This document shows, piece after piece, positions 12,053-34,828 of a DNA stretch of 40,323 bases. The translations under genes and the position numbers were made by a program. The notes under the pieces are model-generated. The model made no database searches. It had not been told where the DNA came from and saw nothing but the letters and a program-made list of their open reading frames with translations. This stretch comes from Acidobacteriota bacterium (GTDB taxonomy: Bacteria; Acidobacteriota; Blastocatellia; HR10; JACQTD01), in assembly GCA_016210985.1 (NCBI GenBank), contig JACQTD010000058.1, positions 1 to 40,323 of the forward strand, read 5' to 3'. How positions within the stretch are numbered: position 1 is the stretch's first letter; every line of letters starts with the position of its first letter.

Positions 12053-14095
12053 ATGAAACCTTACAAGATCTTGGCATGGCTCATCCTGATCACTACAGCC
12101 CTCACCGGTTGCGTCCTCGCAGCCCAGCAGCGCCCCTTCACCGTCGAGGAGATTTACAAGTTCGCCAGGGTGTCGGACCCCCAGCTTTCGCCCGATGGGA
12201 AGACCGTGGCGTTCGTGATCAATAACGTCGACCTCGATGCCAATCGAGGCAACAGTGATATCTGGCTCGTCCCGGTCACCGGCGGCCCGCCACGACCGCT
12301 TACCAACAGCCCCAGGTCCGATGACCGGCCCCGCTGGTCACCCGACGGACGCCGGATCGCGTTCCAATCGACCCGCGAGGGCACGCCCCAGCTCTTTGTG
12401 ATCGACATTCACGGAGGCGAGGCGCAGAAACTCACTTCGCTTTCCACCGGCGCGACCGGGCACATCTGGTCGCCCGACGGACAGTTGATCGCCTTCCTTT
12501 CGGACGTCTATCCCGATTGCGGCGGCGACGATGCGTGCAACCGGAAGAAGAATGAAGCGAAGGAGAAGGATCCAGTCAAAGCGCGGCTACATGAGCATCT
12601 GCAATATCGCCACTGGGTAGCCTACGACGAGGGCACGCGGACGCATCTCTTCGTCGTTCCATCTTCAGGAGGGACACCGAAGGATCTGACTCCCGGACGA
12701 TGGGACGCGGTCCCCTTCGAGCTCTTCTCTTCGGCCGATGAATACGATTTCTCTCCCGACAGCCGGGAACTGGTCTTCGCGGCCAATCGAACCGAAACGC
12801 CCTGGAGTAACATCAATTGGGATCTCTTCACCGTGCCGGTAACGGGCGGTGACCTGAAACGCGTCACCAGCAACACAGCTCCGGACCAGCAGCCCCGCTA
12901 CTCTCCAGACGGCCGGTTCATCGCCTATCGCGCCGGCCGGCGTTACAACTACGAATCGGACCGCATGGAGTTGATGATCTATGACCGGCAGTCGGGCAGC
13001 TTTCGGAGTTTGACCGCAGGATTCGATCGCTGGGTACAGAATCTCTACTGGGCGCCGGGGAGCAAACGCCTCTATTTCACCGCCGAAGATCAGGGGAATG
13101 TCCCTATCTTCACCGTCTCACTGGAGGGGGATGACGTTAAGACTGTCGTGGGCGGCCGGGCTTGGAACGAGGGCGTCTGCCTGTCGCGTGACGGAAATCT
13201 CCTCGCTTTCACGCGCCGGGATCTGGCGCGGACACCGGAGGTCTATACGGCGACCACGGACGGCAGGACGCCACAGCCGCTGACTGCAATTAATGAAGGG
13301 TTCTTCAGGCAGGTGCGGACCCTCGAGGGTGAGGAGATCCGTTACCGCGGCGCGGGTGGAGCCGAGGTCCATGGATTCGTGATCAAGCCTTCGGGGTTTG
13401 ATCCGGCGAAGAAGTATCCGCTGGTGGTCGTGATTCATGGCGGTCCCCAGCAGATGTTCGGGAATGCGTTCCGATCGGAGTTCCAACTATACGCCGCCGA
13501 AGGCTACGTCGTCTTCTTTCCCAATCCGCGCGGGTCTCCGGGTTATGGCCAGAAGTTCATCGACGAGATTAACCGGGACTGGGACGGAAAAGTGGTTGAT
13601 GACATCATGGCCGGCGTCGATTACATGGTCCAGACGGGCTATGTCGACGCTTCACGCATGTGTGCTACGGGCGGGAGCTTTGGCGGTTTCGTGGTCAATT
13701 GGCTAGAGGGGCATAGCACAAAATTCAAGTGCCTGATTTCGCACGCGGGACTGGCCAATCAGTGGAGCATGTACGGGTCGACGGACGAACTTCATTTTCC
13801 CGAATGGGAATTCGGCGGCCCGCCGTGGGAACAACCGGAGATGTACAATCGGTATTCGCCTGTTTTCTATGCCAAAAACTTCAAGACACCAATGCTGATC
13901 ACGCACGGTGAACTCGATTTCCGCGTGCCCATCACCGAAGGCGAGCAGATGTTCACGGCCCTGCAAAGGCAGGGCGTGCCCTCGAAGATGCTGCGGTTTC
14001 CCGATGAAGGCCACTGGATTCTGAAGCCGAAAAACGCCGCGCTCTGGTATCGCACCATGTTAGATTGGTGCGCCGGGTATCTGAAGTCGCACTGA
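12053..14095 (+). CDS. S9-family (acylaminoacyl/dipeptidyl) peptidase with PD40 propeller, exported
   Basis: WSPDG repeats, IHGGPQ, NPRGSPGYG, GGSFGG nucleophile, HGELDFRV, FPDEGHW. Confidence 0.95.
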   Translation: MKPYKILAWLILITTALTGCVLAAQQRPFTVEEIYKFARVSDPQLSPDGKTVAFVINNVDLDANRGNSDIWLVPVTGGPPRPLTNSPRSDDRPRWSPDGRRIAFQSTREGTPQLFVIDIHGGEAQKLTSLSTGATGHIWSPDGQLIAFLSDVYPDCGGDDACNRKKNEAKEKDPVKARLHEHLQYRHWVAYDEGTRTHLFVVPSSGGTPKDLTPGRWDAVPFELFSSADEYDFSPDSRELVFAANRTETPWSNINWDLFTVPVTGGDLKRVTSNTAPDQQPRYSPDGRFIAYRAGRRYNYESDRMELMIYDRQSGSFRSLTAGFDRWVQNLYWAPGSKRLYFTAEDQGNVPIFTVSLEGDDVKTVVGGRAWNEGVCLSRDGNLLAFTRRDLARTPEVYTATTDGRTPQPLTAINEGFFRQVRTLEGEEIRYRGAGGAEVHGFVIKPSGFDPAKKYPLVVVIHGGPQQMFGNAFRSEFQLYAAEGYVVFFPNPRGSPGYGQKFIDEINRDWDGKVVDDIMAGVDYMVQTGYVDASRMCATGGSFGGFVVNWLEGHSTKFKCLISHAGLANQWSMYGSTDELHFPEWEFGGPPWEQPEMYNRYSPVFYAKNFKTPMLITHGELDFRVPITEGEQMFTALQRQGVPSKMLRFPDEGHWILKPKNAALWYRTMLDWCAGYLKSH

Positions 14096-14097
14096 TG

Positions 14098-14144
14098 GTG
14101 GGAGGGGTCTCCCGACCCCGATGAGGTTCGCGGGTTGCGACCTC
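14098..14144. repeat. REP-like palindrome plus second hairpin after the S9 peptidase
   Basis: GTGGGA followed by GGGGTC-TCCC-GACCCC, then an imperfect GAGGTTCGC/GCGACCTC hairpin. Confidence 0.4.
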
Positions 14145-14234
14145 AAAGCCTATCGCGGAGCGACGCCGGAACAACGGCTTGTTCACGGGTAGCGAAACGT
14201 GGAGATAGATGTTAGGTTATCTTCATCGGTACGC

Positions 14235-14957
14235 ATGAAGATCTATGGACAGCACCGATTCCCCGGCCGCCTCTTTGTCGTCGAAGGCATCGACGGTTCG
14301 GGAAAATCCACCCAGCTATCCCTTCTCCAGCAATGGTTGGCTTCTGAAGGATATGGCACGTTTTTTAGTGAGTGGAACTCTTCCCCGCTCGTGAAGGACA
14401 CGACCCGCCGTGGAAAGCGGAAGCGCATGCTGACGCCCACCACGTTCAGCCTCATTCATGCGACGGACTTCGCCGACCGCACCGAACGGGAGATCATACC
14501 GCCGCTGAAGGCGGGTGCGCTGGTGCTGGCCGACCGTTACATCTACACCGCGTTCGCCCGGGATGTGGTCCGTGGAGTAGATCCGGGATGGGTACGGAAG
14601 CTCTATCAATTCGCCGTGAAGCCGACGATCGGGTTCTATTTCCAGGTTCCGCTCAAGGTCGCCATGAAGCGGATTCTCGGCGGCCGGGATGCCATCAAGT
14701 ATTACGAAGCCGGGATGGATCTCGACTTGAGCGAGGATATCGAAGAGAGTTTCAGGCTGTTTCAAGCGCGCATCATCGAAGAATATGAGAAAATGGTCGA
14801 GGAATTCGGACTGACGGTCATCGATGCCACCCGGTCCATCGAGGAGCAACAAAACGAGGTCCGCGCGCAAATCAAACGCAAGCTGATCGGCGTAAAGAAG
14901 GTAAGGGTACAGCGGTGGGTAAATTTGAGTTCTACGGTTCAGGGCTACCGGGGATAG
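14235..14957 (+). CDS. Thymidylate-kinase-fold P-loop kinase, subunit A (candidate polyphosphate kinase)
   Basis: VEGIDGSGKSTQ, ATDFADR, LADRYIY, YYEAGMDL; lacks the usual TREP motif of dTMP kinases. Confidence 0.85.
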   Translation: MKIYGQHRFPGRLFVVEGIDGSGKSTQLSLLQQWLASEGYGTFFSEWNSSPLVKDTTRRGKRKRMLTPTTFSLIHATDFADRTEREIIPPLKAGALVLADRYIYTAFARDVVRGVDPGWVRKLYQFAVKPTIGFYFQVPLKVAMKRILGGRDAIKYYEAGMDLDLSEDIEESFRLFQARIIEEYEKMVEEFGLTVIDATRSIEEQQNEVRAQIKRKLIGVKKVRVQRWVNLSSTVQGYRG

Positions 14958-15643
14958 ACCTCGAGGAACTTAGCGGCAAGCTTATCGTGCTCGAGGGCAC
15001 GGATGGCGTGGGTCGCTCGACACAAGTTTCGCTGTTAAGACCATGGCTCGAGCACTCCGGTCATGCGGTGATGGACACCGGCATGGCGCGATCCGCCCTC
15101 GCCGGCAAAGGCATTAAGCGCGCTAAGGAGGGTCACACGCTGGGCGGAATCGCGCTGAGCCTTTACTACGCCACGGACTTCGCCGACCGGCTGGAGAACG
15201 AAATGATCCCGGCGTTGCGGGCGGGCTTCATCGTGCTCACCGACCGTTACATATACTCGATGATCGCGCGTGCGATCGTCCGGGGAGCTTCACCGGAGTG
15301 GATCAAACAGGTTTACAGCTTCGCGCTGAAACCGGACGTCATTCTCTATCTCAGGATTTCCCTCGACGACCTGACCCCTCGCGTCCTGCATACCTCGGGG
15401 TTCGATTATTGGGAATCGGGCATGGATCTTCGACTCGGCGAGGATCTCTATGACAGCTTCGTCAGTTACCAGACCGGGCTCCTTCGCGAATTCGACCGGA
15501 TGGCTGAATCTTATGACTTTAAGATTATCGACGGTTCAGGTACGATTGAAGAGACGTTCGGCAAATTGCAGGAGGCGATCACGCCGTTGATCAGGACAAA
15601 GCCCATGTTGGATCTCGCTGCTGAACCGGCCGAAGTTCCGTAG
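14915..15643 (+). CDS. Thymidylate-kinase-fold protein, subunit B (P-loop Lys to Arg)
   Basis: LEGTDGVGRSTQ, ATDFADR, LTDRYIY, YWESGMDL; paralogue of the upstream gene, overlaps it by 43 bp. Confidence 0.85.
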   Translation: MGKFEFYGSGLPGIDLEELSGKLIVLEGTDGVGRSTQVSLLRPWLEHSGHAVMDTGMARSALAGKGIKRAKEGHTLGGIALSLYYATDFADRLENEMIPALRAGFIVLTDRYIYSMIARAIVRGASPEWIKQVYSFALKPDVILYLRISLDDLTPRVLHTSGFDYWESGMDLRLGEDLYDSFVSYQTGLLREFDRMAESYDFKIIDGSGTIEETFGKLQEAITPLIRTKPMLDLAAEPAEVP

Positions 15644-15649
15644 ACATCC

Positions 15650-16636
15650 ATGCGCATTGCCGCGATCGATATTGGATCGAACTCACTTCACCTCCTCATC
15701 GTTCGCGCTGATCCTACCCACCGCTTTCACGTCCTCCATAAGGAGAAGAAAATGATCCGCCTGGGTTCGGGATCGCTCCAGTCGGGAAAGATTCCGACCG
15801 CAGCCGCGGACCGGGCCTTGCGCGCACTGAGACGGTTTTCGGGGAAGTGCCGGAAATACGAGGTAGACGAAATCACGGCCGTCGCCACGAGCGCGATTCG
15901 CGAGTCGCAGAACCGGCAGCACCTTCTGGAGCGCGTCAGGCGGGAAACCGGGATCGTCGTCCGCGTGCTGTCGGGGGAAGAGGAAGGGCGTCTGATCGCC
16001 CTCGCCGTCTCCCGCTTCAATCGATCCCACGCGCTGAAGGATCTGATCATCGACATCGGCGGCGGGAGCACCGAGTTGATCGTCACGTCAGCCGGCAAAC
16101 CCTCCTATCTCAACTCCCTCAAGCTGGGATCGGTGCGCCTCACCGAGCGATTCCTCGAGAGTGATCCGCCCGCCCGGGAAGAACTTGCACAACTCCGCCG
16201 TTATGTACGGCGGCTGCTCGAAGAGCCGGCGGCCAGCATCAGGGCCGAAGGGTTCGACCGGGTAGTCGGCACTTCAGGCACGATTCGCGCGCTGGCAAGG
16301 ATGTGCTTGTGGACCGGAGATTCGCCGGGTGATTTGCGCCGGGCGGGACTGGCGTTCGGCACTCAAGCGCTTCAGGACTTGAACCGGCGCCTCTGCAAGC
16401 TGGCGCTGGCGCAGCGATCGGAACTGCCCGGACTCCCCGGACGGCGGGCCGATATCATCGTGGCCGGCGGATTGTTGCTCGAGGAGACCATGGCGGCGAT
16501 CGGCCTCGATCGGCTGACGACTTGCCCCTGGGCCCTTCGCGAGGGGGTGCTGCTCAGCTCGCTGCGGGCAAACGGCCTGCTCGATGCGCGATGGTCAACC
16601 AGGCCCATGGCGGGAAAATTACGCATTTCGGCCTGA
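15650..16636 (+). CDS. ppx: Ppx/GppA exopolyphosphatase, short form
   Basis: IDIGSNSLHL, VATSAIRE, LSGEEEG, DIGGGSTE, GTSGT, RADII, LREG; no C-terminal HD domain. Confidence 0.92.
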   Translation: MRIAAIDIGSNSLHLLIVRADPTHRFHVLHKEKKMIRLGSGSLQSGKIPTAAADRALRALRRFSGKCRKYEVDEITAVATSAIRESQNRQHLLERVRRETGIVVRVLSGEEEGRLIALAVSRFNRSHALKDLIIDIGGGSTELIVTSAGKPSYLNSLKLGSVRLTERFLESDPPAREELAQLRRYVRRLLEEPAASIRAEGFDRVVGTSGTIRALARMCLWTGDSPGDLRRAGLAFGTQALQDLNRRLCKLALAQRSELPGLPGRRADIIVAGGLLLEETMAAIGLDRLTTCPWALREGVLLSSLRANGLLDARWSTRPMAGKLRISA

Positions 16637-16724
16637 GCTTTCACAAGTCGCCTGACGCCGACGGCTTGCAATTTTCCGGGCCCGACGGGACGGCAGATCA
16701 GACGAAGCCCGCGGACCCTGCCCG

Positions 16725-17201
16725 ATGGTCAAGTTTAAGCCTGAAGACGGCGTCACGCTCGCGACGCCCCTCCACCAATGCGCCAGCCAGCTCATCCGGC
16801 GGCGCCTTGAGAGCATGTGGAAACGGAAGCCGGTTGTGCTCACCCGCGCGGATCCTGAGGGTGTGCACCAGATGCGCGTGGCCTCCCGCCGATTGCGGGC
16901 GGCCTTGGCCGATTTGAGCGGCGCGCTCCCGGAAAAGGGGGAACGAAAGCTGAGACGGCGTCTCCGCGCCCTCACCGACGCCCTCGGGGCCGTCCGCGTC
17001 CTGGATGTTCTTCTGGGATCGCTCCAGATCAAACGAACTAAGCTTCCGCCGCGGCTGCGCACGGGCGTGGACCCGCTCATCCGCAGATACCGGCGGGAGC
17101 GTACCCTTCGGCACCGGGAATTGACGTCGTTACTCGGCCAGCTCGACGAGATGGAATTCGAGAAGCGGTTCCATCGTTGGCTGAAGCCCGGAGGCAGGTG
17201 A
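16725..17201 (+). CDS. CHAD-domain protein, N-terminal-half type
   Basis: EGVHQMRVASRRLRAAL..LGAVRVLDV; very Arg/Lys rich; 158 aa. Confidence 0.85.
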   Translation: MVKFKPEDGVTLATPLHQCASQLIRRRLESMWKRKPVVLTRADPEGVHQMRVASRRLRAALADLSGALPEKGERKLRRRLRALTDALGAVRVLDVLLGSLQIKRTKLPPRLRTGVDPLIRRYRRERTLRHRELTSLLGQLDEMEFEKRFHRWLKPGGR

Positions 17202-17208
17202 TCGTGGC

Positions 17209-17766
17209 ATGAAAGCCGTGAAGCTCCCCTCCGTCGGTCCGGCGGAGACCCTCGGACAAGCGGCTGCGAAAATCCTCTCCGTCCGTCTTCGTGAGACCTG
17301 GTCAAGGGTGCGCCCGGTGATGAAGCGCGGCCGTGCGGAGGCGCTTCACCGGTTTCGAATCGCCATCAAGCGTCTCCGATACTCCATGGAGATTTACGCA
17401 CCCCTTCTCGGCGCTGAATTCCACGACGTGCTGGCAGAGATCAAGAACGCTCAGGACATCCTTGGACAGTTGCATGATCGGGACATGGCACTGGAGCGAC
17501 TGGCCGATTATCGTGCGAAGGTCATTGCCGTGCCCGCCAGGGCTCGGAATTCATCCGGATACCCGAAGGGCAGAGTGCTGGAGGAGCGGGCACTCGCGAA
17601 ACTGGCTACGGACTACCAGCGGGAACGTGACCTCCTGTACCGGAGGTTTCTATCAAATTGGCGCAGGATGGGTCGGTCCCGCATACGGGCCAGACTGCTC
17701 CACGCGCTCACGGTTCAGGCTCAACCTGCTCCCTCTCGGGGACGAAGACCGGCCACCTCAAGGTGA
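17209..17766 (+). CDS. CHAD-domain protein, C-terminal-half type
   Basis: EALHRFRIAIKRLRYSME..QDILGQLHD; 185 aa. Confidence 0.85.
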   Translation: MKAVKLPSVGPAETLGQAAAKILSVRLRETWSRVRPVMKRGRAEALHRFRIAIKRLRYSMEIYAPLLGAEFHDVLAEIKNAQDILGQLHDRDMALERLADYRAKVIAVPARARNSSGYPKGRVLEERALAKLATDYQRERDLLYRRFLSNWRRMGRSRIRARLLHALTVQAQPAPSRGRRPATSR

Positions 17767-18964
17767 ATCGCGACCCACGCGCCGGCTGGCTCTCCACCTC
17801 GATCTGCGCGCCCTGGGCGCGCACCAGGTGCTTCACAATGGAAAGCCCGAGGCCGGTTCCGCCGCGTTCGGTAGATCGCGACTTGTCAGCACGGTAGAAC
17901 CGCTCGAAGATGCGGGGCAAGTCGGAACTGGATATCCCGATCCCCGAATCCTCGATGTCGATGACCACCACCTGACCGTCCCGGGAAGCACGAATGCAAA
18001 CCTCCCCTCCGGACTGGTTGAACTTAATCCCGTTATCCGCAAGATTGAGCAAGACCTCTTCGAATCGCTTCGGATCGGCCAGAATCATCAGTCCCGGAGG
18101 CACGTCGCATCGGATGGCCACGTTGAATTCCTGCGCGCGAGGCGAGAGCGTCCCGGCGATCTCCGCTACCACTTGCGACAGGTCGACCGCGCAGGGTTCC
18201 AGGCGGAGACTACCAGACTCGATGGCCGAGAGGGAGGATATATCCTCCACCAGGTTGGTCAATCGCTGAGCGTTGCGTCGTATGGTTTCCAAAAAGCGGG
18301 TGTTGTTCTCCTCATCCTCCAATCCGCCGTCCAGAAGCGTATCCGCATAAGCCGTGATCGAGGTGATCGGGGTCCGCAATTCGTGCGAGACGTTGGTAAG
18401 GAACTCCTGCCGGACTCGCTCCAATTCCTCAAGGCGGGTGATATCGAGGAACACACCCGCCGCGCGGTTTCCCGGCAGCGGGGTGATCCTCAGCGAGAAT
18501 GATCGCGCTTCCACGCCGGCGTATACCGTCACCTGACCCTCGTAGCGCGTCTGACTCATGACGGCGGCCTGAAAGGCGTCGTAGATCGGCTTCTCCCGCG
18601 TTACCTCGGCAAGCCGTTTCCCTCGTAGCGCGTCAGCCGGCTGATGAAATATCGCTGCCGCCGCGGTGTTGGCGAAAAACAATTTGAGGTCCAGGTCGAC
18701 GACTACTACGCCGTCGTGCGCCCGGTCGAGAATCGACTGCAACCAGGCCCGACGCTCCTGCTCCGCCAGGATCCGCCCCGAGAGAAGATCGAACTGCCGG
18801 AGCACTTCGTATCGGATGTCCTGATCGTCCAGGGCGCCTTCCAGTTTCGGAACACGTCCCGCCAGGTCAAGTTTCCAGGCTCGCTGCCGCATGCGTTCAC
18901 GACGAAGAAAGATCAGGGTCACGAGGCCCCCGGCCACCAAAGCTGTTAGAAGCACCGTAGTCAT
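17708..18964 (-). CDS. phoR: PhoR-like PAS sensor histidine kinase
   Basis: DITRLEELERVRQEFLTNVSHELRTPITSI, NLADNGIKFN, DSGIGI, RIFERFYRADKSRS..GGTGLGLSIVKH; Pho context. Confidence 0.88.
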   Translation of the reverse strand: MTTVLLTALVAGGLVTLIFLRRERMRQRAWKLDLAGRVPKLEGALDDQDIRYEVLRQFDLLSGRILAEQERRAWLQSILDRAHDGVVVVDLDLKLFFANTAAAAIFHQPADALRGKRLAEVTREKPIYDAFQAAVMSQTRYEGQVTVYAGVEARSFSLRITPLPGNRAAGVFLDITRLEELERVRQEFLTNVSHELRTPITSITAYADTLLDGGLEDEENNTRFLETIRRNAQRLTNLVEDISSLSAIESGSLRLEPCAVDLSQVVAEIAGTLSPRAQEFNVAIRCDVPPGLMILADPKRFEEVLLNLADNGIKFNQSGGEVCIRASRDGQVVVIDIEDSGIGISSSDLPRIFERFYRADKSRSTERGGTGLGLSIVKHLVRAQGAQIEVESQPARGSRFTLRWPVFVPEREQVEPEP

Positions 18965-19188
18965 GCAGAACCGGATCGATTATCAGCCCAACCGGGTTTT
19001 CAAGTCACGCGATTCGCGCTTGGAGTTCAACCTTTAGGTTGGCCTCCGCTGGGTACAAGCTAAAGCTTGAACGCTGAACCGACCCGGTACCCCCCGTAGG
19101 GCTTGTTGTCGACTCAGAATCGACCTAGCATTTAGTGGGCCCACTCGCTCCGCGGAGGGATTGAACCCATGCCGACCGGGAGTAAATA

Positions 19189-19692
19189 ATGAGACTGATC
19201 CTGATCCGCCACGCCAAGGCAGGCAATCGCGACGATCCGAAGTATCCCGATGATCGGACCCGGCCACTGACCCGGGAGGGTCGGCGTGAGCACAAACGGA
19301 TCGCGGGCGCGCTGGCTAAGATGTCCGTCGACCTCGATCATATATGGACGAGCCCGATATTGCGCGCGAAAGAGACCGCCGAGATCACTGCACGGGAAAT
19401 GGGATTCACAGGCGCGCTTTTCGAGAGCCCGTTATTGGGCGAAGCCTTTTCGATCGACGGACTGATCGCCGCGCTCAAGCCGCTGCCTTCCGAGTGCAGC
19501 GTGGCCTGCGTGGGGCATGAGCCTCATCTCGGCAGACTGGCCGCCGCGCTGCTTCATCCGGATGGCTCGATCGCGATCAAATTCAAGAAGAGCGCGGCGA
19601 TGGGGCTGGATTTTCCAGCCCGGGCCGCCCGGGGAAAAGGGACGCTCCTCTTTTTCCTGCGCCCGGACCACCTCCTCTCCCTGCTGGGGTAA
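19189..19692 (+). CDS. sixA: SixA-like phosphohistidine phosphatase
   Basis: LIRHAKA, RPLT..G, TSPILRAKETA, VGHEP. Confidence 0.9.
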   Translation: MRLILIRHAKAGNRDDPKYPDDRTRPLTREGRREHKRIAGALAKMSVDLDHIWTSPILRAKETAEITAREMGFTGALFESPLLGEAFSIDGLIAALKPLPSECSVACVGHEPHLGRLAAALLHPDGSIAIKFKKSAAMGLDFPARAARGKGTLLFFLRPDHLLSLLG

Positions 19693-19815: not shown

Positions 19816-19854
19816 TTCACATTGAATTAACATCTACGTAACAATCAGGTTACC
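19816..19854 (+). promoter_or_regulatory. Pho-box array (four half-sites)
   Basis: TTCACA 19816, TTAACA 19827, GTAACA 19838, GTTACC 19849: exact 11-bp period, upstream of the TonB receptor. Confidence 0.75.
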
Positions 19855-22853: not shown

Positions 22854-22907
22854 TTGTCGCCGGCAGAATATCCCTTTGCAGTGACATCCGAATCGGAGAA
22901 AAACCCT

Positions 22908-24194
22908 ATGAACCTGAAAGTGATCAGCGCCTCGGCCGGGCTCATCCTGATCCTGGCCTCACTCTTCACACCCTTGACCCGCTCGGTCGCGGCCGATGGA
23001 TCAGCGATCATCGTCGTAACCGGCGACATCACCTCCAGCGTGACCTGGACGTCGACCAACACGTATCTCCTCAACGGCGCCGTCTTTGTCAAGGAACCCG
23101 CCATCCTTACGATTCAGCCCGGAACGACCATCAAAGGGCTGGATCGCAGCTTCCTCGTCATTGAGCGGGGCGCGAAGCTCATGGCGGAAGGAACACCGGC
23201 GGCGCCGATCGTCTTCACCAGCTCGCAGGAACCCGGGTTCCGCAGCCCCCGGGACTGGGGTGGATTGTGGATCAACGGCCGGGCCCCGATCAATACTCCG
23301 GGAGGTCAGGAACTTGGAGAGACCGGCATCACCGGCACCTATGGCGGCGGAGCCGATCCCGACCCGCACGACAATAGCGGTATCATTCGTTATGTCCGCA
23401 TCGAATTCGCGGGCTTCCCGGTTGCTCCCGACGCCGAGATCAACAATTTCACGCTCGCCGGGGTTGGTGATGGGACGAGAGTCGATCACATCCACGTCAA
23501 CCGGGGCGCGGATGACGGCATTGAGTTTTTCGGCGGTACGGTAAACGTAAAGTACATCCTCGCGACCGGAACGGGCGACGACGGATTCGACTGGCAGATC
23601 GGTTACGTTGGGAAGGTCCAGTTCGTGGTGATCCAAGCCGACAACACGGTCGATCCCGCCTCCGACCGGGGTATCGAAGCGGACAACAATGAGAATAACA
23701 ACAATCTCCTGCCCGTCTCCGATCCGCAGCTCTACAATTTCACCATCGTCGGCGACAAGGGCCCGGGCGGCGGCACGGCCGGCATTGTACTCCGCAGGGG
23801 CACCGCCGGAGACCTAAGGAACTTCATCGTGGTCAACTACAAGGGCGCCGGAATCGATATCCAGGGCGGAGTGGCACAGGCTCGTGCTGGCAGCGGCGAA
23901 CTCACGATCACCAACTCGATCTTCTTCAACAACAACCCAAATTTCCAGGCGGGTGTGAGCGATTTAATGTTAAGCCAGGTGGCCACGATCCTGCGTTCCG
24001 ATCCCCTGCTGCGGGATCCGCGGAATCTGACCGCCCCTGATTTTCGTCCGTTGGAGGGATCGCCGGCGCTCGATGCGAGCAACGTCGCCGTTCCTCCGGC
24101 CGATGGGTTCTTCACCCCGGTTGCATTCATGGGGGGTGTCGATCCTCAGAATGACTGGACCCAGGCCGCCTGGATCAGCGTCGTCAGGAACTAG
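22908..24194 (+). CDS. Exported beta-helix protein, ElpS-like TonB-receptor partner
   Basis: LTIQPGT, PIVFTS, DWGGLWINGRAP, DNSGIIRYVRIEFAG, GVGDGT, DDGIEFFGG, GIEADN; GGAG RBS before ATG 22908. Confidence 0.7.
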   Translation: MNLKVISASAGLILILASLFTPLTRSVAADGSAIIVVTGDITSSVTWTSTNTYLLNGAVFVKEPAILTIQPGTTIKGLDRSFLVIERGAKLMAEGTPAAPIVFTSSQEPGFRSPRDWGGLWINGRAPINTPGGQELGETGITGTYGGGADPDPHDNSGIIRYVRIEFAGFPVAPDAEINNFTLAGVGDGTRVDHIHVNRGADDGIEFFGGTVNVKYILATGTGDDGFDWQIGYVGKVQFVVIQADNTVDPASDRGIEADNNENNNNLLPVSDPQLYNFTIVGDKGPGGGTAGIVLRRGTAGDLRNFIVVNYKGAGIDIQGGVAQARAGSGELTITNSIFFNNNPNFQAGVSDLMLSQVATILRSDPLLRDPRNLTAPDFRPLEGSPALDASNVAVPPADGFFTPVAFMGGVDPQNDWTQAAWISVVRN

Positions 24195-24254
24195 GGAATT
24201 TCAACCACACACGCCCGGCTTCTACGGCGGGCAACGCGCGAGTGCGAGAGAGCC

Positions 24255-24791
24255 ATGTTCAGGATGACCTGGAAATTTACCGAAAGCCGCGCTTCCGCTC
24301 TCGCGCTGTGCATCCTGGGCCTTCTGTTCTCGTCGGGCTGCAGCATCATGGGTAGGGAGCCGCGAATGATGCCGAACGCCCAGCCGAGCCCGGAGGTCCT
24401 GGTTGAACAGGTGCTTGAGGCCCTCGCCCGTAACGATGGCGGGAGCCTCAAGAACCTGGCGCTTACAAAAGAAGAATTCTGCGATATCCTCTGGCCTGAA
24501 CTGCCTTCCAGTGAGACACCGAACCTGACGTGCGACTGGGTCTGGAACACGTTCGGACCGAGCAGCCTGAACAAGCTCAGTCAGACCTTGGGAGCGCATG
24601 CGGGCAGGAAATACCAATTGGTCCGCCTACGGTGTGTCAGGGGAACAACCGCCTACAAGAGTCTCAAAGTCCATGAGGATTGCCGGGTTGTTGTCGGGGA
24701 CGACGAAGGACGCGAGCGCGAGCTCAAACTATTCGGATCGATCCTGGAAATGGATGGTCAGTTCAAGCTCTGCAATTTTATCGTCGATTAA
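24255..24791 (+). CDS. Hypothetical lipoprotein
   Basis: 178-aa ORF with hydrophobic leader and SSGC lipobox; co-directional with the TonB operon. Confidence 0.65.
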   Translation: MFRMTWKFTESRASALALCILGLLFSSGCSIMGREPRMMPNAQPSPEVLVEQVLEALARNDGGSLKNLALTKEEFCDILWPELPSSETPNLTCDWVWNTFGPSSLNKLSQTLGAHAGRKYQLVRLRCVRGTTAYKSLKVHEDCRVVVGDDEGRERELKLFGSILEMDGQFKLCNFIVD

Positions 24792-29551: not shown

Positions 29552-29572
29552 GGATTTAACACGGATTTAACA
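29552..29572 (+). promoter_or_regulatory. Pho box upstream of pstS
   Basis: GGATTTAACA exact direct repeat at 29552 and 29563 (11-bp period). Confidence 0.8.
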
Positions 29573-29692
29573 TTCCTCCGGTAGGTTAATTCATTCTAAG
29601 TGATTTTTTGTTTTCGCCTTTTTACATTTTCCACTAAGCCGCTGCCCGGTTGCGGTAGACTGATCAGTTTCCTTCGATTTGAGGCTTTTCCT

Positions 29693-30754
29693 GTGCGAAC
29701 TCAGCTTTCGATGCTCTTATTGTGTCTGCTCATCCTCTCCACTGGCGGGTGCGGAGGGACGAAGGACGGCGCGGAGGAAGTCTCGCTACAAGGCGCCGGC
29801 GCCACGTTTCCCTATCCGCTCTATTCCAAATGGATCAGTGAATACCACAAGGTCAATGCCCGGGTCCGCCTCGATTACCAGTCGATCGGCAGCGGGGGTG
29901 GAATCAAGCAGCTCACTGAACGGACGGTGGATTTCGGTGCCAGTGACGTTCCGATGACGGATGAACAGCTCCGGACGGCCGCGAAGGAAGTCCTTCACAT
30001 TCCGAGCGCCTTGGGAGCGGTCGCCGTCATTTACAATCTTCCGGGGGTCGCTTCGGGTCTCAAGATCACTTCCGATCTGCTGGCCGACATTTTTCTGGGA
30101 AAGATCACCAAGTGGAATCATCCAGGGATTTCCGCTCACAATCCGGGCGTGTCGATGCCGAATGCAGACATCCTCGTCGTTCATCGGACCGATGGCAGCG
30201 GCACGACCGCGGTCTTCGTGGATTATCTCAACAAGGTGAGCAGCGAGTGGGTAGGACGCGTGGGCAGAGGAACCTCCGTGAACTGGCCCGCGGGCATCGG
30301 CGGAAAGGGGAATGAGGGTGTGGCGGGCCAGGTCAAGCAGACGGCGGGTTCGATCGGATATGTGGAACTTGCATACGCGGAACAGAATCAAATCGCCTAT
30401 GCTGAAATCCGGAATCGGTCCGGTATTTTTCTCAAGCCTTCGGTGGCGAACATCACCGCGGCGGCGGCCAGTATGTCGGCGCAGGTTCCTGACGATTTGC
30501 GAGTCTCGATCACCGATGCCGAGGGACCTGCGGTCTATCCCATTTCGGCGCTGACCTACATCCTTGTTTTTCGCGAACAGGTCGATGAACAGAAGGGCAA
30601 GGCGGTGGGGGATTTCCTCTGGTGGGCGATTCATGATGGCCAAAAGTTCACCGGGCCGCTCCAGTACGCTCCGTTGCCCGATGACCTGGTGAAAAAGACC
30701 GAGACCAGGCTGAGACTGCTCTCCTTTAATAACCAGCCGCTCCTGCACCGCTGA
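29693..30754 (+). CDS. pstS: Phosphate ABC transporter substrate-binding lipoprotein
   Basis: GAGATFPYPLY, YQSIGSGGGI, DFGASD, HRTDGSGTT, GKGNEGV, IGYVE; GTG start at 29693 inferred. Confidence 0.97.
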   Translation: MRTQLSMLLLCLLILSTGGCGGTKDGAEEVSLQGAGATFPYPLYSKWISEYHKVNARVRLDYQSIGSGGGIKQLTERTVDFGASDVPMTDEQLRTAAKEVLHIPSALGAVAVIYNLPGVASGLKITSDLLADIFLGKITKWNHPGISAHNPGVSMPNADILVVHRTDGSGTTAVFVDYLNKVSSEWVGRVGRGTSVNWPAGIGGKGNEGVAGQVKQTAGSIGYVELAYAEQNQIAYAEIRNRSGIFLKPSVANITAAAASMSAQVPDDLRVSITDAEGPAVYPISALTYILVFREQVDEQKGKAVGDFLWWAIHDGQKFTGPLQYAPLPDDLVKKTETRLRLLSFNNQPLLHR

Positions 30755-30758
30755 ATTG

Positions 30759-31742
30759 ATGAGTTCTCTCGCGCTACGGGATAATGAACAGTCCGGGCTG
30801 ATGGCCCGCTGGTCGCGCAGCCGGCATCGTTGGAGCGACGTCCTGTTCCGGCGCCTCACGGCTTGCTTCGCACTGAGCATTCTGATCCTCCTCGTTTGGA
30901 TGCTGATCACCCTCGCGCTGAATGCCCGGCAGGCCCTCGCGCGATTCGGCTGGGGTTTTCTGTGGGGTCGGACCTGGGACCCTGTCAGGGAGCAGTTTGG
31001 AGCGCTGCCTTTTGTGTACGGTACCATCGTCTCATCGACGTTGGCGCTGTGCATCGCAGTACCTTTGAGTCTCGGTGTGGCCATTTTCCTGTCCGAGCAT
31101 GCTCCGCGCGGATGGGAAAACGTTGTGGCCTTCCTGGTGGATACGCTCGCGGCGATCCCGAGCGTGATCTACGGGCTTTGGGGAATCTTTATTCTCTCGC
31201 CGGCGTTGCGCAATTACATTGAGCCGTGGCTGGCGAGCACATTCGGGTTCCTTCCTTTGTTCCAAGGTCCGCCGTATGGAATCGGGATGTTGGCAGGGGG
31301 CATCATCCTCGCGATCATGGTCCTCCCGATCATCACGGCTGTTTCCCGCGATGTGCTGCAGGCCGTGCCTAATACACAGCGGGAGGCCGCGCTCTCCCTC
31401 GGCGCCACCCGCTGGGAGACGACCAGGGTGGTCCTGGCACATGCCCGTGCGGGACTCACTGGCGCGGTGATTTTGGGATTAGGCCGCGCGATCGGGGAGA
31501 CCATGGCGGTTACGATGGTGATCGGGAACCGGCCGGAGATCTCCTATTCACTTTTTGACCCTTCCTACACCATCGCCAGCGTGATCGCCAACGAATTCAA
31601 CGAGGCGACCTATGAGCTTTACGTGCAGGCGTTGATTGAGTTGGGCCTGATTCTCTTCCTGGTAACTTTAATCGTGAATGCGGTGGCACGACTTTTGGTC
31701 TGGAGCGTAACGAGAAGGACTCGAGAGGTGCAGCGGGTATGA
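30759..31742 (+). CDS. pstC: Phosphate ABC permease
   Basis: WDPVREQFGALP, LAAIPSVIYGLWG, REAALSLGATRWE, GRAIGETMAV. Confidence 0.97.
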   Translation: MSSLALRDNEQSGLMARWSRSRHRWSDVLFRRLTACFALSILILLVWMLITLALNARQALARFGWGFLWGRTWDPVREQFGALPFVYGTIVSSTLALCIAVPLSLGVAIFLSEHAPRGWENVVAFLVDTLAAIPSVIYGLWGIFILSPALRNYIEPWLASTFGFLPLFQGPPYGIGMLAGGIILAIMVLPIITAVSRDVLQAVPNTQREAALSLGATRWETTRVVLAHARAGLTGAVILGLGRAIGETMAVTMVIGNRPEISYSLFDPSYTIASVIANEFNEATYELYVQALIELGLILFLVTLIVNAVARLLVWSVTRRTREVQRV

Positions 31743-32590
31743 TCGACCCACTCCGTTACCGAAAGGTAGTCAATGGCGTCATGACGGGAGCGACGTTCAT
31801 TTGCGCGCTAGCTGTCCTCGCCATCCTTTTCGCGATCCTTGGATATATCGTCGCCCAAGGCATCGCCGCGCTGAATATCGACTTCCTGACCAAGTTGCCG
31901 AAACCGGTCGGCGAATCCGGTGGTGGGATCGCGCACGCCATTGTCGGATCGATGCTGCTGATCGGTATTGCCATCCTCCTGGGTCTGCCGTCAGGGATTC
32001 TTGCCGGGCTGTATCTGGCCGAGTTCGGTAAGAACAAACTCGGGCGATTCATCGAGTTCGTCACGGACATTCTGGCGGGTACGCCTTCGATCATCGTCGG
32101 CATTTTTGCCTATACCCTGATCGTCCTGCCGATGAAGCGGTTCTCCGCCTTTGCCGGGGGTGCGGCGCTCGCCCTCATCATGATCCCGATCATTACCCGG
32201 ACTACACAGGAGATCATCCAGCTCGTGCCGCAGACCTTACGGGAGGGGGCCCTGGCCCTGGGAGCGCCGCAGTGGCGCGTGACGCTCGGAGTCGTGCTGC
32301 GATCCGCGGCCGGCGGGGTGGCGACGGGCGTAATGCTCGCGATTGCCCGCGTCGCCGGCGAGACGGCGCCGCTGCTTTTTACCGCCCTGGGGAGCCACCA
32401 TTGGAGCACGGCCCTGGACCGCCCGGTTGCGTCGCTGACGGTCACGATTTACGATTACGCGAAGGCCCCGTATGATGACTGGCATGCCCAGGCTTGGGCA
32501 GGGGCACTGGTCCTGGTAATGATGATCGGCATGACCAATTTGGCGGTAAGGCTTTTCACCCACAGCCGATATTCAGGTACTCATCCATGA
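31739..32590 (+). CDS. pstA: Phosphate ABC permease
   Basis: [34 protein letters not shown]. Confidence 0.97.
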
Positions 32591-33423
32591 TGACCAAGGC
32601 GAAATTAGCTATGCCTGTAAACTTGCTGGAGAAGTCCACGGCTGAGCCGATGAAGCGGCCCGCCCTGGATAGCAAAGTCACGATCGAGCAACTGAATTTT
32701 TTCTACGGCCCGGTTCAGGTATTGTTCGACATATCGCTCACGATGCCCAGCCGGCGAGTCACCGCCTTCATCGGACCATCCGGATGCGGCAAATCGACCC
32801 TCCTGCGGACGCTCAATCGGATGAACGACATCATCCCGCACGCGCGTCTCCAGGGTCGCGTGAAGATCGATGGGACCGATATCTACCAGACCGGCATGGA
32901 TGTCGTGAGGCTCCGACAGCGCGTGGGAATGATCTTTCAGAAGTCCAATCCGTTTCCAAGATCGATTTTCGAGAATGTAGCCTATGGCCTGCGCATCAAC
33001 CAGCTGGTCCGGTCCCGGCGGGAGCTCGATGAGCGGGTGGAACAGGCGCTCCAACAAGCTGCGCTCTGGGACGAAGTGAAGGACCGGTTGAAGGAATCGG
33101 CCTTCGGGCTCTCCGGCGGGCAACAGCAGCGTCTCTGCATTGCCCGCGCGCTTGCCATCCGTCCCGATGTCATCCTAATGGACGAACCTGCCTCGGCCCT
33201 CGATCCGATTGCGACGCAGAAAATCGAAGAGCTCATCGTGCGACTGAAGGAGGAATATACGGTCGTCATTGTCACGCACAATATGCAACAGGCCGCCCGT
33301 GTCTCGGATCATACCGCCTTCTTCTGGATGGGCCGGCTTATTGAGTTTGATCCTACGGAGAAGATGTTCACCAAACCGGCACATCAGATGACGGAGGATT
33401 ACATCACCGGTAGGTTTGGCTGA
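32587..33423 (+). CDS. pstB: Phosphate ABC ATPase
   Basis: [52 protein letters not shown]. Confidence 0.97.
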
Positions 33424-33433
33424 GGAGTGATGT

Positions 33434-34099
33434 ATGCCTGAACACCGCTTAGTCGATCATGATTTGAACCGGTTGAGAGATAAGGTCCTGCTCATCGGCG
33501 GCGAGGCCGAGCGCGCCGTCGCCGAGGCCATGCAGGCTTTCATCTCGAGAGACAGTCAGCGAGCACGCGCCGTAGTCGATCATGACGACGCCATTGACGC
33601 CATCGAGTTGGAGATCGACGATTTGTGCATCGACGTGCTGGCCTTGAGGCCGCCCGTGGCCGGGGACCTGCGGTTCGTCATGACTTGCGCGCGGATCGCT
33701 CCGGTACTCGAACGCATCGCCGATCATGCCTGCAATGTGGCGCGGCATGCCCTGGCCCTGAACCTGGAGCCCCAGGTCAAGCCTTTCATCGATCTTCCGG
33801 AGATGGGGCGGCTCGCTGTCGAGATGGTACACGCCAGCATGGACGCGTTTGCCACGCGTGACGTGAGCCAGGCGAGAGCATTGATTCTCCGCGACCATCG
33901 CATCGATGACCTCTATAATCAGATTTTCCGGGAGCTCCTGACCTACATGATCGAGGACCCGCGGACGATCTCACGCGCCACACACCTGCTTTTTGCCGCC
34001 AAGCACCTCGAGCGCATCGCCGATTACGTGAAGAATGTCTGTGAGCAGGTTGTTTACATGGTGGAAGGGCGGGTCATCAAGCACGTCGGCATCGAATAG
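33434..34099 (+). CDS. phoU: Phosphate signalling protein
   Basis: DDAID..E, PVAGDLR, LERIADH, second repeat LERIADY. Confidence 0.96.
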   Translation: MPEHRLVDHDLNRLRDKVLLIGGEAERAVAEAMQAFISRDSQRARAVVDHDDAIDAIELEIDDLCIDVLALRPPVAGDLRFVMTCARIAPVLERIADHACNVARHALALNLEPQVKPFIDLPEMGRLAVEMVHASMDAFATRDVSQARALILRDHRIDDLYNQIFRELLTYMIEDPRTISRATHLLFAAKHLERIADYVKNVCEQVVYMVEGRVIKHVGIE

Positions 34100-34108
34100 A
34101 AACCAACC

Positions 34109-34828
34109 GTGAAACGGCGGATCCTGATCATTGAAGACGACGCGGACATCGCCCGGTCGATTGCCTATAACCTGGAGCGCACGACGGGATTGAAGACCGA
34201 CTGGGCCGCGGATGGAGAGAGCGGCCTCGAGAAGGCCTTCGAAGTCCCTCCCGATCTGATCCTGCTCGATCTGAACCTGCCGCAGATGAATGGGGTGGAG
34301 ATCTGCCGCCGGCTCAGGCAGGAGAGCATGACGCGATTGATTCCGGTTCTCGTCCTGACGGCTCGTACCGGTGAGAATGACCGGGTCACTTGCCTCGACC
34401 TGGGGGCGGACGATTACATGGGAAAGCCGTTCAGTATGCGGGAGCTCGTGGCCCGAGTGCGGGCGCTCATCCGTCGATCCTATCCGGCTGAACAGGTTGC
34501 ACCTTACGATGACGGATTGTTGCGGGTCGATCATGAAAACTTCCAGGTGATTTCCGCGGGCCAGGAAGTGCGGCTCACCCGCAAGGAATTCGCTCTCTTC
34601 TGGCTGCTGGTGCAGAACCGGGGACGGGTGTTAACCCGCGACCTCCTGCTGGATCGCGTGTGGGGATTCAGCTACGGTGGAGAAACGCGGACGCTCGATG
34701 TCCACGTCCGGAGACTGCGGAAGAAGCTCGGAGAGCAATACAACTTCATCGAAACCGTAGTCGGCGTCGGCTACCGGTTTAACCCACCTAACTTGAAGGC
34801 CCTCTCCGCCGTCGGACTGTCGGAATAG
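34109..34828 (+). CDS. phoB: PhoB/OmpR-family response regulator
   Basis: IIEDD, LLDLNLP, GADDYMGKPF, LTRKEF, RTLDVHVRRLRKK, ETVVGVGY; follows phoU. Confidence 0.9.
   Translation: MKRRILIIEDDADIARSIAYNLERTTGLKTDWAADGESGLEKAFEVPPDLILLDLNLPQMNGVEICRRLRQESMTRLIPVLVLTARTGENDRVTCLDLGADDYMGKPFSMRELVARVRALIRRSYPAEQVAPYDDGLLRVDHENFQVISAGQEVRLTRKEFALFWLLVQNRGRVLTRDLLLDRVWGFSYGGETRTLDVHVRRLRKKLGEQYNFIETVVGVGYRFNPPNLKALSAVGLSE

Follow-up and report, generated by a model that had tools for sequence, protein, structure and literature searches.

A tandem pair of thymidylate kinase-like genes beside ppx and CHAD genes in an Acidobacteriota bacterium: a predicted family-3 polyphosphate kinase with a catalytic and a regulatory subunit

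The window analysed here, that is the whole stretch of 40,323 nucleotides at positions 1 to 40,323 (forward strand) of contig JACQTD010000058.1 from an Acidobacteriota bacterium of the class Blastocatellia (assembly GCA_016210985.1), was found to contain two overlapping genes of the thymidylate kinase type, here called A and B, followed by the genes of an exopolyphosphatase (Ppx) and a CHAD protein (Table 1). The open reading frame (ORF) of A encoded 240 aa from an ATG codon, or 252 aa if the alternative GTG start at 14199 was taken, and the ORF of B encoded 242 aa. The two genes were found on the plus strand with an overlap of 43 nt, and their products were 40% identical over 203 aa (E 2e-55). 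Both translations contained conserved ATDFADR and DRYIY motifs followed by the presence of a YYEAGMDL/YWESGMDL motif. A was found to contain the P-loop GSGKST and a basic patch, RRGKRKR, and the Walker A sequence of B was GVGRST. An earlier interpretation made from the letters of the window alone (the sequence-only reading) had described overlapping paralogues with these shared motifs, the two different P-loops and the absence of the TREP motif of dTMP kinases; every quoted motif was recovered in the translations, and the REPGGT stretch was contained in neither protein.

A comparable pair is known from Sulfolobus, the enzyme type having been reported for archaea in 2024-2026. According to Hofmann et al. 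(JBC 2026; PMC12995831, cited throughout from parts of its text), Saci_2019 and Saci_2020 form a heteromeric polyphosphate kinase (SaPPK3), in which Saci_2019 makes polyphosphate (polyP) and is activated by Saci_2020, and neither protein phosphorylates dTMP. The complex was described there as behaving as a heterotetramer (alpha2beta2), as preferring the formation of ATP from polyP and ADP by ~50-fold and as using GDP at a reduced rate; the archaeal regulatory subunit (rPPK3) was inactive alone and the catalytic subunit (cPPK3) alone had some activity. The same text gives the family the name PPK3, treats STK_15430 (5h70) as a cPPK3 homologue and predicts that bacteria have PPK3 operons containing PPX, SixA, CHAD and Pst genes, while an older 'PPK3' label concerns, in the literature as excerpted, enzymes of the PPK2 family. 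The sequence-only reading had named the Sulfolobus enzyme, and its idea of a bacterial counterpart was right in substance and not new, having already been predicted in this paper.

In comparisons with the structure database, the best match of A was found to be 2plr/5h70 of Sulfurisphaera tokodaii (E 8.6e-58, ~49% identity as counted from the alignment) and that of B was 2plr (E 1.4e-37), whereas the true thymidylate kinases (Tmks) of the database were matched only at ~1e-12 by A and ~1e-9 by B. The matched protein, STK_15430 (PDB 2plr, 4nzy, 4rzx and 5h70), shares the ATDF(A/S)DR, DRYIY and E-A-G-x-D motifs with A and B; it differs in that only about half of the residues of A are shared, and it was crystallised alone and deposited as a 'probable thymidylate kinase'. 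With the Pfam profile Thymidylate_kin (PF02223) A scored 79.7 bits and B ~61 bits (60.9-61.1), the match of B being confined to profile positions 1-139. No match of A or B to the PPK2 profile PF03976 was found at E <=0.01, and the pair is thus not placed in PPK2 by that profile.

For the phylogeny, six Sulfolobaceae-like operons with the gene order ppx-c-r-CHAD were used as anchors and 12 canonical Tmks from the genome of the window and its relatives as the outgroup. The c subunit of one anchor matched 2plr at E 2.1e-106; the anchors were also considered as S. tokodaii itself, which was rejected as none of the six was identical to 2plr. In the IQ-TREE phylogeny of 74 rows, the A-types, the B-types and both subunit types of the anchors were found to form one clade (SH-aLRT 99) apart from the 12 Tmks, and the branch between this clade and the Tmks had a length of 3.16 substitutions per site. 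The B-types formed a clade with the Sulfolobaceae r-subunits (SH-aLRT 96), and the A-types and the Sulfolobaceae c-subunits made up the remainder. The A and B subtrees were largely congruent, and since they mirror each other the pair appears to travel as a unit. The same picture was obtained with FastTree over all 184 rows (support 95 for the B-types with the Sulfolobaceae r-subunits). A was thus placed with the catalytic and B with the regulatory PPK3 subunits, away from true Tmks, as the sequence-only reading would have it. Canonical dTMP kinase (TIGR00041, PF02223) has the fold family, P-loop and DRX motif in common with the pair and differs from it by an identity of 28-33%, by the REPGGT stretch and by the long branch on which the pair stands. 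In a HMMER alignment with the Tmk of A. aeolicus, the Arg of 'ASR' was aligned with the invariant Asp of ATD. This Arg is the residue that presumably binds the dTMP phosphate.

Residues were counted over 81 A-type and 78 B-type sequences in the numbering of A. The Walker A position 24 was occupied by Lys in all 81 A-types and by Arg in all 78 B-types. The arginine of the DRY motif, R101, was conserved in 81/81 A-types and 77/78 B-types, R146 was found in 81/81 A-types, and the E-x-G-x-D motif of the lid was kept in both types. The lid residue R151 was present in every A-type (81/81) and in only 9/78 B-types, position 155 contained Lys in 77/81 A-types and Asp or Asn in 74/78 B-types, and positions 54-68 contained a mean of 5.7 basic residues in the A-types against 2.7 in the B-types. 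The catalytic subunit of a PPK3 is expected to have an intact P-loop, the DRX arginine, the lid and a positive cleft, and all of these were found in A, the cleft being scored here by K155 and the basic content of positions 54-68 and not by the residue list of PMC12995831 itself. The residues for dTMP binding were not conserved: the REPGGT stretch was found in 0/81 A-types and 0/78 B-types, in contrast to 11/12 canonical Tmks. An alignment of 36 sequences of B showed 24 columns without variation and, at the N terminus, the conserved extension FYG..LP.

The second subunit was found to differ from its archaeal counterpart as published. In PMC12995831 the rPPK3s are described as having another residue in place of the DRX arginine, its loss is invoked for the inactivity of the r-subunit, and Nitrososphaerota are counted as PPK3 carriers. 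The 6/6 Sulfolobaceae-like r-subunits were found to contain DGY, with the loss of this arginine, and 4/6 of them kept the Walker A Lys, unlike B, which contains DRY and the Walker A Arg found in all bacterial and Nitrososphaerota B-types; the DRY arginine was kept in 7/7 Nitrososphaerota B-types. The loss of the DRX arginine is therefore treated here as a probable trait of the Sulfolobaceae branch and not of the family as delimited by clade and operon, and the comparison shows that, as far as sequences can tell, the published reason for r-subunit inactivity would not hold across the whole family. As B keeps the DRY arginine, its inactivity would follow only from the change of the Walker A Lys to Arg and from the missing lid and cleft residues. 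The Lys-to-Arg signature of the B-types and the finding that the DRX arginine is kept outside Sulfolobaceae are new with respect to the text of PMC12995831.

Related loci were taken from a scan of species-representative genomes; the 80 best loci, picked by A alone, contained proteins 55-77% identical to A. Going by record titles, bacteria of at least 12 phyla accounted for 72/80 loci and archaea of Nitrososphaerota or Thermoproteota for the other 8/80. The phyla included Thermodesulfobacteriota, Binatota, Acidobacteriota, Chloroflexota, Planctomycetota and Nitrospirota, followed by Armatimonadota, Bacteroidota, Verrucomicrobiota, Gemmatimonadota and Hydrogenedentota. A B-type gene was found directly downstream of the A-type gene in 75/80 loci, so that adjoining c and r paralogues in one operon were found here and across the sample; of the remaining five, two contained B elsewhere in the locus, two ended at a contig edge and one had room for B and did not contain it. 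Within 6 kb of the pair, Ppx was found in 52/80 loci, SixA in 30/80, CHAD in 20/80 and Pst in 9/80, and any of Ppx, SixA, CHAD, Pst or PhoU in 57/80. A polyP or Pho gene lay within ~1.5 kb of the pair in 56/80 loci, against 0/13 control loci holding a canonical tmk or a third paralogue with 1.5-kb flanks. These figures are descriptive counts, not tests, over genomes that are related and not independent. The linkage of homologous pairs to ppx, CHAD, sixA and pst genes, on which the sequence-only reading had staked its interpretation, was thereby observed, and the same genes for polyP and phosphate were found around the pair of the window.

Several arrangements among the related genes were found to depart from this pattern. 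The two loci with B elsewhere, both of Planctomycetota (L042 and L049), contained an r-type gene, a space of ~1 kb, ppx and a c-type gene, in this order. A conserved extra gene was considered for the ~650 bp that separate A from the Ppx match in many related loci, and was rejected, as this stretch is the C-terminal domain of a long-form Ppx (~520 aa). One protein of 460 aa (among P0121, P0132, P0140 and P0144) contained two Tmk-like domains, and three proteins of 650-696 aa contained two Tmk-like domains followed by a Ppx-GppA domain III/HD domain; on their domain content, these fusions are putative Rosetta-stone links that join c and r to the C-terminal domain of Ppx. PPK3-like domains with 46-50% identity to A were also contained within very long proteins (P0187, P0190, P0153 and P0194): two of ~1250 aa contained an MFS transporter, a Tmk-like domain and APH/DUF2252, and two of the polyvalent type (1610-2575 aa) contained an InPase pyrophosphatase domain, one of them with ART-PolyVal. 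In genomes of the family f26 (for example G256, G343 and G284), the r-type frames measured ~483 aa from stop to stop and the c-type frames reached 925 aa in several genomes, which hints at further fusions.

A 1:1 complex of A and B was modelled from alignments of 36 rows. Three runs gave an ipSAE of 0.72, 0.71 and 0.72, and the best control reached 0.01, on a scale where the mark is passed by 58/80 solved complexes and 2/110 mismatched pairs. At least 96% of contacts were common to the runs, and the partner had a pLDDT of at least 81. The modelled interface was formed by residues 52-84 and 113-126 of A and residues 8-12, 61-95 and 124-136 of B, and contained the shared ATDFADR helix together with the N-terminal FYG..LP extension of B. 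We take this interface to resemble the classical homodimer face of Tmk. The model supports a contact between A and B, as a 1:1 assembly, and may partly reflect memory of Tmk homodimers; the complex proposed in the sequence-only reading passed its controls with this same caveat.

The genome of the window (79% complete, 347 contigs) was found to contain four matches to Thymidylate_kin, namely A, B, a canonical tmk and a third paralogue. The canonical tmk was found on contig C167 with 178.8 bits, against 79.7 for A and ~61 for B, so a dTMP kinase is encoded separately from the pair, as the sequence-only reading had asked to be checked. The third paralogue, on contig C77 (L003 1489-2118), was very divergent (75.8 bits, tree branch ~3) and was neighboured by HAD-hydrolase and methyltransferase genes. 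A canonical tmk was present in 20/20 relatives and the extra pair in 3/20 (one of the same order, two of the same class). PPK1 was not found in the genome, at its 79% completeness, nor in 11/11 relatives of the same order, and was found in 9/9 relatives of the same class, both pair-holders included, one of which contained ppk1 ~5 kb from the pair. Within the order, PPK2 was found only in the genome of the window and in one relative, which also contained the pair. Given this co-occurrence, PPK3 does not simply replace PPK1 or PPK2 in these bacteria. With the models used, 10/11 relatives of the same order (G203-G212, most of them 87-98% complete) contained no PPK1, PPK2 or PPK3 pair.

The wider distribution was found to be considerable. 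In an even sample of Acidobacteriota, 46/301 genomes matched A at E <=1e-40, a count that takes in the genome of the window and one unpublished genome, and 44/46 of them contained two matches; among good-quality genomes the count was 43/274 and among genera 28/186. At least 400 clusters of a 50%-identity protein library matched A at E <=1e-30 and 1766 at <=1e-10, and a 90%-identity collection contained at least 8000 candidates at E <=1e-10. A count of '534 of 600 stretches' was rejected as a number of PPK3 genomes, as canonical Tmks are also caught by one of the two patterns used in the search. The bacterial members of PPK3 are called 'few' in the published text of PMC12995831, and judged by these matches the expression 'a few bacteria' understates the family. 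Its breadth in bacteria and its co-occurrence with PPK2 and PPK1 are added by the present analysis.

From homology, phylogeny, motif pattern, synteny and the complex model, by which this interpretation is supported, A and B very probably make up a family-3 polyphosphate kinase, with A as its catalytic (cPPK3) and B as its regulatory (rPPK3) subunit; the two thymidylate kinase paralogues would have been exapted for polyphosphate metabolism. Both the kind of enzyme and its presence in bacteria had been published or predicted, and the pair is a new member known from its genes alone. It resembles SaPPK3 in the adjoining Tmk-fold paralogues beside ppx and CHAD with SixA nearby, in a catalytic subunit with intact P-loop, DRX, lid and basic cleft next to a degenerate second subunit, in the canonical tmk elsewhere in the genome and in its clade, shared through the Sulfolobaceae-like anchors. 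It differs in its gene order, c-r-ppx-CHAD unlike the ppx-c-r-CHAD of the anchors, and in its host, a bacterium with a PPK2. PPK2 (PF03976), and above all its two-domain class II, is likewise described in parts of PMC12995831 as a P-loop kinase with phosphate transfer between polyP and nucleotide and with an inactive domain or subunit that serves oligomerisation; unlike the pair, the real PPK2 of the genome is a separate gene recognised by its own profile. Every computational test proposed in the sequence-only reading favoured its interpretation, the complex model with the caveat given above.

By analogy with SaPPK3, activity, preferred direction, stoichiometry and regulation can be predicted for the pair. 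A would use its intact P-loop to bind ATP or ADP and its basic cleft to bind polyP, and would move phosphate reversibly between polyP and ADP/ATP. B would be non-catalytic, docking on A through the classical dimer face of Tmk and activating it by oligomerisation. Both genes would be co-transcribed with the genes for the exopolyphosphatase and the polyP-granule (CHAD) protein, and the 43-nt overlap would probably give translational coupling.

Several observations weigh against this interpretation. A scored 85.2 with the NCBIfam dTMP kinase model TIGR00041, just above the cut-off of 83.25. The replacement of the DRX arginine that is expected of an rPPK3 was not found in B. The genome also encodes a PPK2 on contig C151 (245.7 bits, the sole PPK2 match), so the chief role in polyP metabolism may not fall to PPK3; the check on ppk1 and ppk2 proposed in the sequence-only reading found no PPK1, at the completeness given above, and this one PPK2, and the pair, supported by homology as catalytic and accessory subunits, is not the only candidate polyP kinase of the genome. 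The pass of the complex model may be due to likeness to solved Tmk homodimers, 2plr among them. The CHAD gene (16725-17766) is broken: its two ORFs are separated by 7 nt and differ in frame. No Pho-box-like repeat (TTMACA-N5-TTMACA) was found upstream of A with up to 2 mismatches, and a Pho box at this place was rejected. The literature search gave no enzyme data for this or any bacterial pair and no paper centred on a bacterial PPK3 of the dTMP kinase type.

It is unlikely, though conceivable, that the pair stands in the PPK3 clade and catalyses another reaction in vivo, or that both subunits are catalytic, for example with GDP, AMP or another acceptor phosphorylated from polyP and with B acting as a slower second site or sensing nucleotides instead of serving as an inert scaffold. 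The retention of D100, R101, R109, R113, R146 and the E-x-G-x-D lid in at least 75/78 B-types would fit such a role, as would the invariance of the Lys-to-Arg change (78/78), which is unlike random decay, and the PPK2 of the genome could handle the bulk turnover of polyP. A Walker A change of Lys to Arg in P-loop enzymes, however, usually abolishes phosphotransfer, and B is without the lid R151, K155 and most of the basic patch conserved in A. The reduced rate of SaPPK3 with GDP also speaks for this alternative, and the inactivity of the archaeal r-subunit alone speaks against it (both in parts of PMC12995831).

It is very improbable that A and B are genuine duplicated dTMP or nucleoside-monophosphate kinases, as they are annotated. 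Both pass the threshold of Pfam Thymidylate_kin and A also just passes TIGR00041, with B under it at 65.3; their close homologues are named 'dTMP kinase' in the source records, as the sequence-only reading had suspected in speaking of routine misannotation as tmk, and the bioRxiv version mentions an earlier report that presented the S. tokodaii homologue as a thymidylate kinase of an unusual kind. The canonical tmk at 178.8 bits elsewhere in the genome, the missing REPGGT stretch, the position outside the Tmk clade on a long branch, the lack of dTMP kinase activity in Saci_2019 and Saci_2020 (PMC12995831) and the tight linkage to ppx, CHAD and sixA, against 0/13 control loci, all argue against it.

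That A works alone beside a decaying B without a role, the predicted contact being an artefact of Tmk-dimer memory, could draw on the interface presumed to resemble the Tmk dimer face and on the activity of cPPK3 alone reported in parts of PMC12995831 for Sulfolobus, but is hardly probable given the presence of B beside A in 75/80 loci across many phyla, the 24 invariant columns of B with its FYG..LP extension in the modelled interface and the congruent trees of A and B.

Within the preferred interpretation of A and B as PPK3 subunits, a further and rather doubtful possibility concerns the second subunit. Because the Walker A Arg (78/78), the DRY clamp, R109, R113, R146 and the E-x-G-x-D lid are retained, the second subunit of bacteria and Nitrososphaerota might be a conserved sensor binding nucleotide or polyP rather than a dead scaffold, the Sulfolobus form being atypical and further degenerated. 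Such a subunit could determine, according to the ATP/ADP ratio, which way the PPK3 reaction runs.

The genes around the pair were identified mainly by Pfam (Table 1). The ppx, CHAD, sixA-like and pst genes named in the sequence-only reading were found by their profiles, while the name phoR came from context only, as the gene in question, convergent with the operon, is a sensor kinase of the PAS/HisKA/HATPase type. The absence of ppk1 and ppk2 that it had noted in the window was found to extend to the whole contig. The Ppx gene scored 275.7 bits with TIGR03706, under the cut-off of 307. CHAD was found as a single ORF of ~300-356 aa in 9/11 related loci holding both halves, and in two loci (L045 and L084) the halves were likewise in different frames, or ambiguous; the split in the window is due to a frameshift or else to an error of assembly.

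Table 1. Genes of the predicted polyphosphate kinase locus and its phosphate-related neighbours (positions in the window)
Feature	Position	Strand	Basis
A, cPPK3-type catalytic subunit (predicted), current name dTMP kinase	14235..14957	+	PF02223, 2plr/5h70 match, motifs, tree
B, rPPK3-type regulatory subunit (predicted)	14915..15643	+	PF02223, 2plr match, GVGRST, tree
Short-form exopolyphosphatase (Ppx/GppA family)	15650..16636	+	PF02541 241.3 bits; starts 6 nt after B
CHAD protein, N-terminal half	16725..17201	+	PF05235 profile positions 2-135
CHAD protein, C-terminal half, different frame	17209..17766	+	PF05235 profile positions 138-228
PAS/HisKA/HATPase sensor kinase	17708..18964	-	Pfam domains; convergent with operon; 'PhoR-like' from context only
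SixA-like histidine phosphatase (His_Phos_1)	19189..19692	+	PF00300 43.3 bits, residues 3-72
pstS, pstC, pstA, pstB, phoU	29600..34099	+	Pfam
OmpR-type response regulator	34109..34828	+	Pfam

A TonB-dependent receptor gene was found by Pfam between the SixA-like gene and the pst genes, followed by two ORFs (446 aa and 178 aa, 22854-24791) which lie before an SBF transporter and had no Pfam match at E <=1e-4. Positions 19816-19843, upstream of the receptor gene, contained perfect or near-perfect TT(A/C)ACA repeats with a period of 11 bp, resembling a Pho box of three half-sites, and a perfect TTMACA-N5-TTMACA repeat (Pho-box-like, two half-sites) was found at 29556-29572 upstream of pstS. The seven such repeats in the whole window were not above chance (mean 3.08; 7/100 shuffles reached 7). 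A promoter scan of 13900-19300 gave no promoter-like site upstream of A, terminator-like sites in the same region were not above chance, and a 9-mer comparison across upstream regions gave nothing convincing.

If the interpretation of A and B as a PPK3 holds, thousands of 'dTMP kinase' annotations in bacteria of soil, sediment and wastewater would be polyphosphate kinases, and surveys limited to ppk1 and ppk2 would underestimate the polyP capacity of carriers among Acidobacteriota, Nitrospirota, Chloroflexota, Planctomycetota and others. The Walker A change of Lys to Arg would provide a simple way to tell the r from the c subunit, and a bacterial pair like A and B would be a mesophilic enzyme for tests of the PPK3 mechanism.

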